Below are positions 46,073 through 46,934 of a DNA stretch of 64,000 nt, piece after piece. How positions within the stretch are numbered: position 1 is the first letter of the stretch; each line of letters begins with the position of its first letter. A program made the position numbers and the translations under genes. The DNA is from Escherichia coli O127:H6 str. E2348/69 (GTDB lineage: Bacteria > Pseudomonadota > Gammaproteobacteria > Enterobacterales > Enterobacteriaceae): NCBI RefSeq assembly GCF_000026545.1, contig NC_011601.1, one strand, 5' to 3'. The notes under the pieces are model-generated. The model made no database searches and was not told the DNA's origin. It was given only the letters and a program-made list of their open reading frames with translations.

Positions 46073-46375
46073 ATGAAAAAAAGAAATTTCAGCGCAGAGT
46101 TTAAACGCGAATCCGCTCAACTGGTTGTTGACCAGAACTACACGGTGGCAGATGCCGCCAAAGCTATGGATATCGGCCTTTTCACAATGACAAGATGGGT
46201 CAAACAACTGCGTGATGAGCGTCAGGGCAAAACACCAAAAGCCTCTCCGATAACACCAGAACAAATCGAAATACGTGAGCTGAGGAAAAAGCTACAACGC
46301 ATTGAAATGGAGAATGAAATATTAAAAAAGGCTACCGCGCTCTTGATGTCAGACTCCCTGAACAGTTCTCGATAA
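46073..46375 (+). CDS. insN: IS3-family transposase OrfA (InsN-like HTH protein)
   Basis: [49 protein letters not shown]... 100 aa with HTH and leucine zipper. Confidence 0.85.
46324..46330 (+). promoter_or_regulatory. Programmed -1 ribosomal frameshift slippery heptamer A_AAA_AAG
   Basis: AAAAAAG in orfA zero frame (AAA AAG) near orfA 3' end, with orfB in -1 frame downstream. Confidence 0.6.
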
Positions 46376-46934
46376 TCGGGAAACTCAGAGCGCATTATCC
46401 TGTGGTCACACTCTGCCATGTGTTCGGGGTTCATCGCAGCAGCTACAGATACTGGAAAAACCGTCCTGAAAAACCAGACGGCAGACGGGCTGTATTACGC
46501 AGTCAGGTACTTGAGTTGCATAACATCAGCCATGGTTCTGCCGGGGCAAGAAGCATCGCCACAATGGCAACCCTGATAGGCTTCAGAATGGGGCGCTGGC
46601 TTGCCGGCAGGCTCATGAAAGAACTGGGACTGGTCAGTTCTTTCATGAGCCTGCGCACCGTTATAAACGAGGTGGTCGTGAACATGTCACTATCCCGAAT
46701 CACCTTGGGCGGCAGTTCGCAGTGACAGAGCCAAATCAGGTATGGTGCGGCGACGTGACGTACATCTGGACGGGGAAACGTTGGGCATACCTTGCCGTTG
46801 TTCTCGACCTGTTTGCAAGGAAACCGGTAGGTTGGGCAATGTCGTTCTCTCCAGACAGCAGACTGACCATCAAAGCGCTGAAAATGGCCTGGGAAATCCG
46901 CAGTAAACCAGCCGGGGTAATGTTCCACAGCGAT

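Follow-up and report, generated by a model that had tools for sequence, protein, structure and literature searches.

A templated frameshift and an ISEc21-associated deletion in a hybrid IS3-family element at the thrW locus of Escherichia coli E2348/69

The insertion sequence that lies next to the tRNA gene thrW in Escherichia coli O127:H6 E2348/69 raises the question of why its transposase gene changes reading frame upstream of the insertion that interrupts it. Within the 64,000-nucleotide stretch of NC_011601.1 analyzed here (the window), a first-pass annotation had described the element as an IS911-like copy that carries an IS110-family insertion and, in addition, a frame-changing difference in orfB. 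The account we favor begins with a template-switch mutation at an imperfect palindrome in an IS911 relative, here called X. The IS110-family element ISEc21 would later have entered both X and a second IS3-family element, Y, and recombination would then have deleted the interval between them. We place the probability of this account as a whole at about 0.82. The features involved are collected in Table 1.

Table 1. Features of the thrW locus (positions in the window; L011 is the thrW-island locus of strain Z1323PEC0014)
Feature	Position	Strand	Evidence or remark
thrW tRNA-Thr (CGU)	45401..45476	+	ARAGORN, Rfam tRNA match, RefSeq annotation
thrW-island integrase gene, 3' remnant	45491..46000	-	ends at left end of IS; 99.8% identical to L011
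X 5' part, 934 nt, IS911-related, IS3 family	46001..46934	+	100% identity to L011 3112-4045
orfA, 100 codons + stop	46073..46375	+	Pfam HTH_Tnp_1 over residues 1-74
A AAA AAG programmed -1 frameshift heptamer	46324..46330	+	
orfB, -1 frame	46330..46725	+	NF033516 positions 88-182
Inverted repeat, left arm, 20 bp	46607..46626	.	same as wild type; encodes RLMKEL
Inverted repeat, right arm, 20 bp	46635..46654	.	8-nt loop between arms
Templated replacement, +2 nt	46640..46647	+	CTTTCATG for wild-type GCCAGC; alignments and reverse-complement check
X orfB remainder, third frame	46650..46934	+	NF033516 positions 187-282
ISEc21 (IS110 family), 1374 bp	46935..48308	+	RefSeq product name; NF033542, 198 bits
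ISEc21 seekRNA-specifying non-coding region, 281 nt	46935..47215		
ISEc21 transposase gene	47216..48292		
Y 3' part with right terminal repeat	48309..48624	+	different IS3-family element

The tRNA gene thrW is the attachment site of an island that sits between proA and yagU. RefSeq labels the left IS3 fragment at this locus 'frameshifted; incomplete', the middle portion 'IS110-like element ISEc21 family transposase' and the right fragment 'integrase core domain-containing protein'. The left terminal inverted repeat of X, recognized by end alignment, is TGTAGTGGCACACTGAATTTGGCCACC and stands at the very start of the element. Over 762 nt, wild-type X shows 89.5% identity to the IS911A fragments of K-12 MG1655; isoforms, by the ISfinder convention, share roughly 95% nucleotide identity or more. 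Given that level of identity to IS911A, X would be classed as a relative of IS911 and a distinct IS, not as IS911 itself or an isoform of it. Looking for ISfinder names for X and Y (ISEc92, ISEc93, ISCfr6), we found ISEc92 and ISEc93 mentioned only in the seekRNA paper and a preprint, which give no sequences for them.

A further trace of island history lies to the right of the hybrid IS, where positions 48763-49021 align at ~74% identity with 45431-45691 and contain a diverged second thrW 3' end joined to an integrase 3' end. ARAGORN reports no tRNA in this segment, which RefSeq annotates as an integrase pseudogene. It has the look of a leftover, either from a second, tandem island or from an attachment site duplicated long ago.

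The coding content of X is spread over three frames. After orfA, which runs from an ATG at 46073 to a TAA at 46373-46375, the -1 frame is open from 46330 to a TGA at 46723-46725 and encodes wild-type-like protein as far as ...GLVS, followed by 28 non-homologous residues. Homology to the catalytic domain resumes in the third frame at 46650 and continues to 46934, from PAHRYKRGG to MFHSD with the first two catalytic Asp residues included, in a frame free of stops from 46602 up to the homologous part. Matches to the NCBIfam IS3 profile NF033516 come in consecutive blocks: orfA covers positions 1-85, the -1 frame 88-182, the third frame 187-282 and the sequence beyond the insertion 283-368. The gap at profile positions 182-187 places the frame change at ~46639-46650. 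The DDE (rve) core is thus not contained in one continuous orfB, its homology being split three ways with the last part supplied by a different element. Much of this had been read correctly in the first-pass annotation. The coordinates of the heptamer that it took to set the orfB frame hold, and slippage there yields a 389-aa OrfAB in intact copies; the DDE-domain sequence does lie in another frame, as the profile blocks show; that frame is kept across ISEc21, the length of which is 3 x 458 nt and which has the same window frame on both sides; and the frame change, expected near 46640-46720, falls at the left edge of that interval.

The nature of the lesion became clear from alignment with reference copies, the check that the first-pass annotation had proposed. 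Intact copies are 2 bases shorter at this point and contain a single continuous orfB, and the opposite outcome, the same frame layout in a reference with no indel, did not arise in the alignment. Where intact copies read CAGTT GCCAGC AGCCTGC, the window reads CAGTT CTTTCATG AGCCTGC, the new block occupying 46640-46647. Over the 1249-bp element this exchange is the sole difference between variant and intact copies in the alignment, apart from position 46182 in some copies and a 1-nt deletion in L009, the thrW-locus X of strain 377323_2f. The postulated frame-changing difference is therefore real, but it is a templated 6-to-8-nt replacement rather than the simple indel that had been expected. 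The deletion in L009 shortens the A-run of the slippery heptamer by one base, at the equivalent of 46324; it is either another frameshift or an error in sequencing a homopolymer.

What makes the replacement informative is where its letters come from. The inserted block CTTTCATG is the exact reverse complement of CATGAAAG, which occupies 46614-46621 in the interior of the left arm of an inverted repeat. In wild-type X the repeat is imperfect, with a 7-bp outer stem (GCAGGCT/AGCCTGC) and a 5-bp inner stem (AACTG/CAGTT) on either side of an 8 x 6 nt mismatch, whereas in the window 46607-46626 and 46635-46654 pair perfectly over 20 bp around the 8-nt loop. Folded as a DNA hairpin, the window version reaches -24.9 kcal/mol (z -9.3), compared with -9.5 kcal/mol (z 0.07) for the wild type. 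The chance expectation for a perfect 20-bp inverted repeat is ~3e-6 in 64 kb, and the probability that an 8-9-nt replacement would match the opposite arm exactly by chance is ~4e-6 to 1.5e-5. A search for a second, wild-type copy of the site within the 64-kb window returned none. To judge from these sequence features, the perfected repeat and the exactly templated bases are together the signature of a quasipalindrome template-switch mutation. According to such a mechanism, the ancestral orfB would have contained the imperfect repeat, with a mismatched interior of 8 nt on one arm and 6 nt on the other; the nascent strand would briefly have copied the opposite arm while DNA was being synthesized, with the left-arm interior at 46614-46621 as template; and GCCAGC would have been overwritten by CTTTCATG, giving the perfect 20-bp palindrome, a net gain of 2 nt and the frameshift. 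Earlier literature on mutations associated with quasipalindromes includes Ripley (1982). In E. coli, quasipalindrome template-switching is a described mechanism and a known class of mutational hotspot, studied by the Lovett laboratory at sites in the thyA and lacZ reporters (PMC7202029).

The perfected hairpin was also considered as a candidate intrinsic terminator and rejected, since no T-run stands behind it. A terminator and promoter scan of 45950-47300 found neither, and Rfam, scanned permissively over 45400-49400, gave just thrW and a single weak chance match, with nothing at the hairpin or in the ISEc21 non-coding region; for the latter (46935-47215), Rfam 15 gave none at E <= 0.1.

To place the allele in a wider context, we counted both versions in 5426 complete E. 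coli genomes. Of these, 6 contain a variant-specific 49-mer, at 9 places in all, and 435 contain the corresponding wild-type 47-mer, at 508 places. The shorter state is common to wild-type X, to the K-12 MG1655 IS911A fragments and to the more distant Y, which makes the wild type ancestral and the window allele derived. Two islands provide natural comparisons. In the ssrA-intA island, at a site downstream of intA, RM14723 has the wild-type allele while 377323_2f, EC12, 382634_2f and Z1323PEC0014 carry the variant, all in uninterrupted copies, and the island flanks differ between RM14723 and the variant strains at 0-2 positions in 3750 bp. In the thrW island, the copy in Z1323HEC0355 shares the left junction and has the wild-type allele, and Z1323PEC0014 and 377323_2f have the variant, again uninterrupted. 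Thus the inactivation of orfB is indeed independent of the insertion, as the first-pass annotation had asserted from the window alone, given that the identical allele occurs in uninterrupted copies in four other strains (L004, L006-L010).

This distribution also bears on how many events were needed. The replacement could in principle be the sum of several small mutations, a 2-nt insertion plus about four substitutions, collected one by one in a decaying pseudogene, and a non-functional copy could indeed accumulate changes without selection. However, the 1249-bp element is otherwise identical to intact copies, save for 46182 and the single-base deletion in L009, the ssrA-intA flanks are nearly invariant, each changed base matches the opposite arm (chance ~1e-5), and the 508 wild-type and 9 variant places include no intermediate allele. 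We regard stepwise accumulation as scarcely credible. The lack of intermediates and the near-identical backgrounds argue instead that a single replication event probably lies behind all of the changes.

A second way to avoid a lesion would be to suppose that the three-frame layout is natural, with another recoding event at the junction, so that the frame change would not have inactivated the copy. The absence of a stop in the third frame from 46602 up to the homologous part and the strong hairpin at the junction would both suit such a scheme. On the other hand, the two-frame version occurs in 435 genomes, with an ordinary programmed -1 frameshift and a 389-aa OrfAB, and K-12 IS911A and Y are likewise two-frame. 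The sequence upstream of the hairpin contains no X XXY YYZ slippery heptamer, and the frame-change point falls within the hairpin itself. RefSeq, for its part, calls the uninterrupted variant copies frameshifted pseudogenes and gives the intact ones the label 'programmed frameshift'. Natural recoding at this point is therefore extremely improbable, and a mutational frameshift by template switching remains our preferred reading.

Assemblies of E2348/69 itself do not all agree on the allele, which raises the question of whether the frame change could be an artefact of sequencing, assembly or polishing and the true locus encode an in-frame orfB. Window positions 42490-50434 correspond to 266490-274434 of NZ_LT827011.1 at 100% over 7.9 kb, and both LT827011 and LT903847, which are E2348/69-derived, have the variant. 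CP059840.2, from the same strain, has the wild-type allele at the thrW locus and the variant nowhere in its genome, and all differences between the assemblies fall inside multi-copy elements, as an artefact would predict. Besides the allele itself, CP059840.2 has five further substitutions, at 46567, 46786, 46853, 47270 and 47734, all in X and ISEc21. Every CP059840.2 allele from 46567 to 47734 equals that of the X::ISEc21 copy at the ydcA locus, while 46182 keeps the thrW-type base. The pattern suggests that ~1.2 kb or more was copied over from the ydcA locus, either by real gene conversion in that stock or through a repeat-polishing error, and it points to CP059840.2 as the converted or mis-polished version. 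Against an artefact in the window stands, moreover, the identical 8-nt replacement in four unrelated assemblies from other laboratories, including an orthologous thrW-island copy. Since the variant is found in orthologous copies of other strains and in the two E2348/69-derived assemblies, we take the window allele as genuine and consider an artefact very unlikely.

The relative age of the frame change can be judged from the island that carries it. The stretch comprising thrW and the integrase gene is 99.8-100% identical between E2348/69 and Z1323PEC0014, against 96.75% for the core gene proA. A near-identical island in such diverged company suggests that the island, with X already frameshifted, was shared by recent descent, and the frame change is probably older than the ISEc21-associated event in E2348/69.

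At the protein level, wild-type OrfAB has 389 aa, with Pfam domains HTH_Tnp_1 at 1-74, HTH_21 at 142-189 and rve at 218-316. The variant OrfAB is cut to 217 aa, of which 189 are native and 28 aberrant; it ends between HTH_21 and the DDE (rve) core, and rve is lost. The window copy also has T at 46182 where intact copies have C, which changes Ser37 of OrfA to Phe (Ser37Phe) in the N-terminal helix-turn-helix region. This T is common to the thrW-locus copies and one intA-locus copy, that of 382634_2f.

Some genomes hold the dead allele more than once. In Z1323PEC0014 three places match a 945-nt X query and the variant is likewise found at three. In looking for the third of these sites, we searched for the RM14723 yegI-nleD insertion junction and found it only in the wild-type strains RM14723, 2015C-4136CT1 and Z1323HEC0355. 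Presence at two or three loci per genome could possibly reflect gene conversion, mobilization in trans, transfer of entire islands or a hotspot at which the change recurs. Variant copies differ at 46182, some having T and others C, so that a minimum of one conversion or one recurrent change is required. A more elaborate proposal is that the palindrome-forming allele is a recurrent hotspot or has spread by gene conversion, and that its 217-aa product is a trans-dominant inhibitor of related IS3-family elements. The product retains both DNA-binding domains without the catalytic core and could thus inhibit such elements in trans. If true, an inhibitory or spreading allele would explain why the variant stands at all matches to the 945-nt query in one genome and, in several strains, at two orthologous loci. 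We nevertheless consider this proposal improbable.

We now turn to the insertion. The transposase encoded between the two IS3 fragments scores 198 bits with NF033542, against a cut-off of 140, which identifies it as a DEDD-type IS110 transposase, and the thrW-locus ISEc21 is 99.9% identical to the other ISEc21 copies of the strain. It was inserted without duplication after ...TTCCACAGCGAT (the HSD codons) and before CAGGG, that is, between MFHSD and QGS and directly 3' of the codon for the second catalytic Asp. This is the target described for ISEc21: a seekRNA specified by the non-coding region ahead of its transposase gene directs the element to the codons that surround the second DDE-motif Asp of certain IS3-family transposases (Siddiquee et al. 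2024, PMC11187229). The copy used in those experiments (LT903847.1 1801957-1803530, including 100-bp flanks; PMC11187229) is the norW-locus copy of an E2348/69 derivative, and the window copy matches its ends and its 1374-bp length. The left X|ISEc21 junction is present in 367 genomes and the right ISEc21|Y junction in 134. Besides the hybrid, E2348/69 has X::ISEc21 at ydcA and Y::ISEc21 at norW. The norW locus is itself a nest of IS fragments: immediately to the left of Y::ISEc21, positions 417-720 of L013 and L014 contain an inverted fragment whose terminal sequence, GGACGCCCTTCTAAGAGTCA, is that of the ISEc21 right end and which adjoins the Y left end, and an IS1397 remnant lies on the other side.

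Beyond ISEc21 the IS3-type sequence is no longer X. The segment 48309-48624 is ~69% identical to the 3' part of X, 100% identical to intact Y in L011 and 99.4% identical to Y::ISEc21 at norW. Intact Y occupies 18155-19412 of L011, in the same island and orientation as X and ~15 kb downstream of it; and in both Z1323PEC0014 and 377323_2f the two elements stand ~15 kb apart around a lambdoid prophage remnant, an interval that has been lost from E2348/69. The junction is sharp on both sides. Window 46001-46934 follows L011 up to 4045 and the sequence from 48304 onward follows L011 from 19091 onward; the missing 15,050 bp (L011 4046-19095) comprise the X 3' part, the lambdoid prophage remnant and the Y 5' part. 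To the left of ISEc21 the sequence is specific to X down to base -1, X having CACAGCGAT and Y having CATAGCGAC; to the right it is specific to Y from base +6, Y having CAGGGA and X having CAGGGC. The crossover must therefore lie inside ISEc21 or in the five adjoining bases CAGGG that X and Y have in common. Calling the element an IS911-like copy with an insertion was hence right for its left part, the IS911 relative X, and wrong for its right part, which comes from Y.

The ends of the hybrid tell the same story. It is flanked by AAC on the left and TGT on the right, with no target-site duplication, while other X copies have duplications of CTA or GTA. Its left end, TGTAGTGG..., is intact, the right end derives from Y and reads ...CCACTAC followed by T instead of A, and the terminal repeats do not match. 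A continuous orfB, matching ends and a target duplication, which mark a complete IS3-family element, are thus all missing from the window copy. The verdict 'doubly dead' in the first-pass annotation, which counted frameshift and insertion, was sound on both but understates the damage, as the element also has a foreign right end, lacks a target-site duplication and is a hybrid born of a ~15-kb deletion.

Two smaller observations concern the edges. The T at 48625 stands where Y at norW and all X copies have the A of the canonical CA end, and the last base of Y may have been mutated or lost at the thrW locus. On the other side, 826 bp (L011 2286-3111) are missing to the left of X and the integrase gene is truncated exactly at the X left end; this loss represents either an IS-adjacent deletion or an independent insertion.

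How might X have been joined to Y? The simplest course of events would be that ISEc21 inserted into X and, ~15 kb downstream and in the same orientation, into Y, and that homologous recombination between the two ISEc21 copies then removed the interval and left X(5')-ISEc21-Y(3'). No genome was found to represent the intermediate, carrying ISEc21 in X as well as in Y of the thrW island. The same end product would have resulted had X and Y recombined directly at the patch encoding HSDQG and ISEc21 inserted later into the target that the hybrid would have retained. Yet X and Y, at 62.6% overall identity, have no exact match as long as 14 nt at the target and junction, whereas two ISEc21 copies would offer 1374 bp at ~99.9% identity, and the strain does have ISEc21 in both types of element. 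A direct X-Y crossover is accordingly unlikely, albeit the least improbable of the alternatives weighed here. If recombination between ISEc21 copies is indeed what happened, ISEc21, by targeting the transposase genes of the IS3 family, can give rise to deletions between IS3 elements that are unrelated to each other.

Taken together, all components of the locus are of known kinds and the mechanisms are known ones; this is ordinary decay of mobile elements with a clear mutational cause and poses no challenge to current understanding. The analysis adds a precise description of the lesion, natural before-and-after pairs and the structure of the hybrid and its deletion. The practical value lies mostly in annotation, as the locus is best described as thrW, an integrase remnant, X(5', frameshifted), ISEc21 and Y(3'), an arrangement that marks a ~15-kb deletion. 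For the study of mutation, the paired loci, with identical flanks and an identical IS that differ in the templated block only, could provide a field example of the quasipalindrome class.

Comparison with known systems brings out both the ordinary and the unusual sides of the locus. Like other members of the IS911/IS3 family, X has orfA and an overlapping orfB in the -1 frame, an A AAA AAG heptamer, a DDE (rve) core and terminal repeats that start with TG, and its other copies are bordered by 3-bp target duplications (CTA, GTA). Unlike IS911, the window copy has a second, unprogrammed frame change, is split by ISEc21, ends in a foreign 3' part and lacks a target duplication. The frame change resembles described quasipalindrome mutations in that an imperfect repeat existed beforehand, a multi-base change perfected it by an exact copy of the opposite arm and a frameshift was the result. 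It differs from the reporter hotspots in being a natural allele of wild genomes that resides in a multi-copy mobile element at several loci. The ISEc21 copy agrees with the published element in its length of 1374 bp, its insertion without duplication, its second-Asp target and the ends used experimentally, but, unlike a simple insertion, its two target halves come from two IS3-family elements and it marks a deletion junction. Finally, as in deletions between directly repeated IS copies, one IS is left behind and its flanks lie ~15 kb apart in related genomes, whereas in contrast to plain IS-IS deletions each presumed ISEc21 copy sat inside another IS, so that the product is a chimeric IS3-type element.
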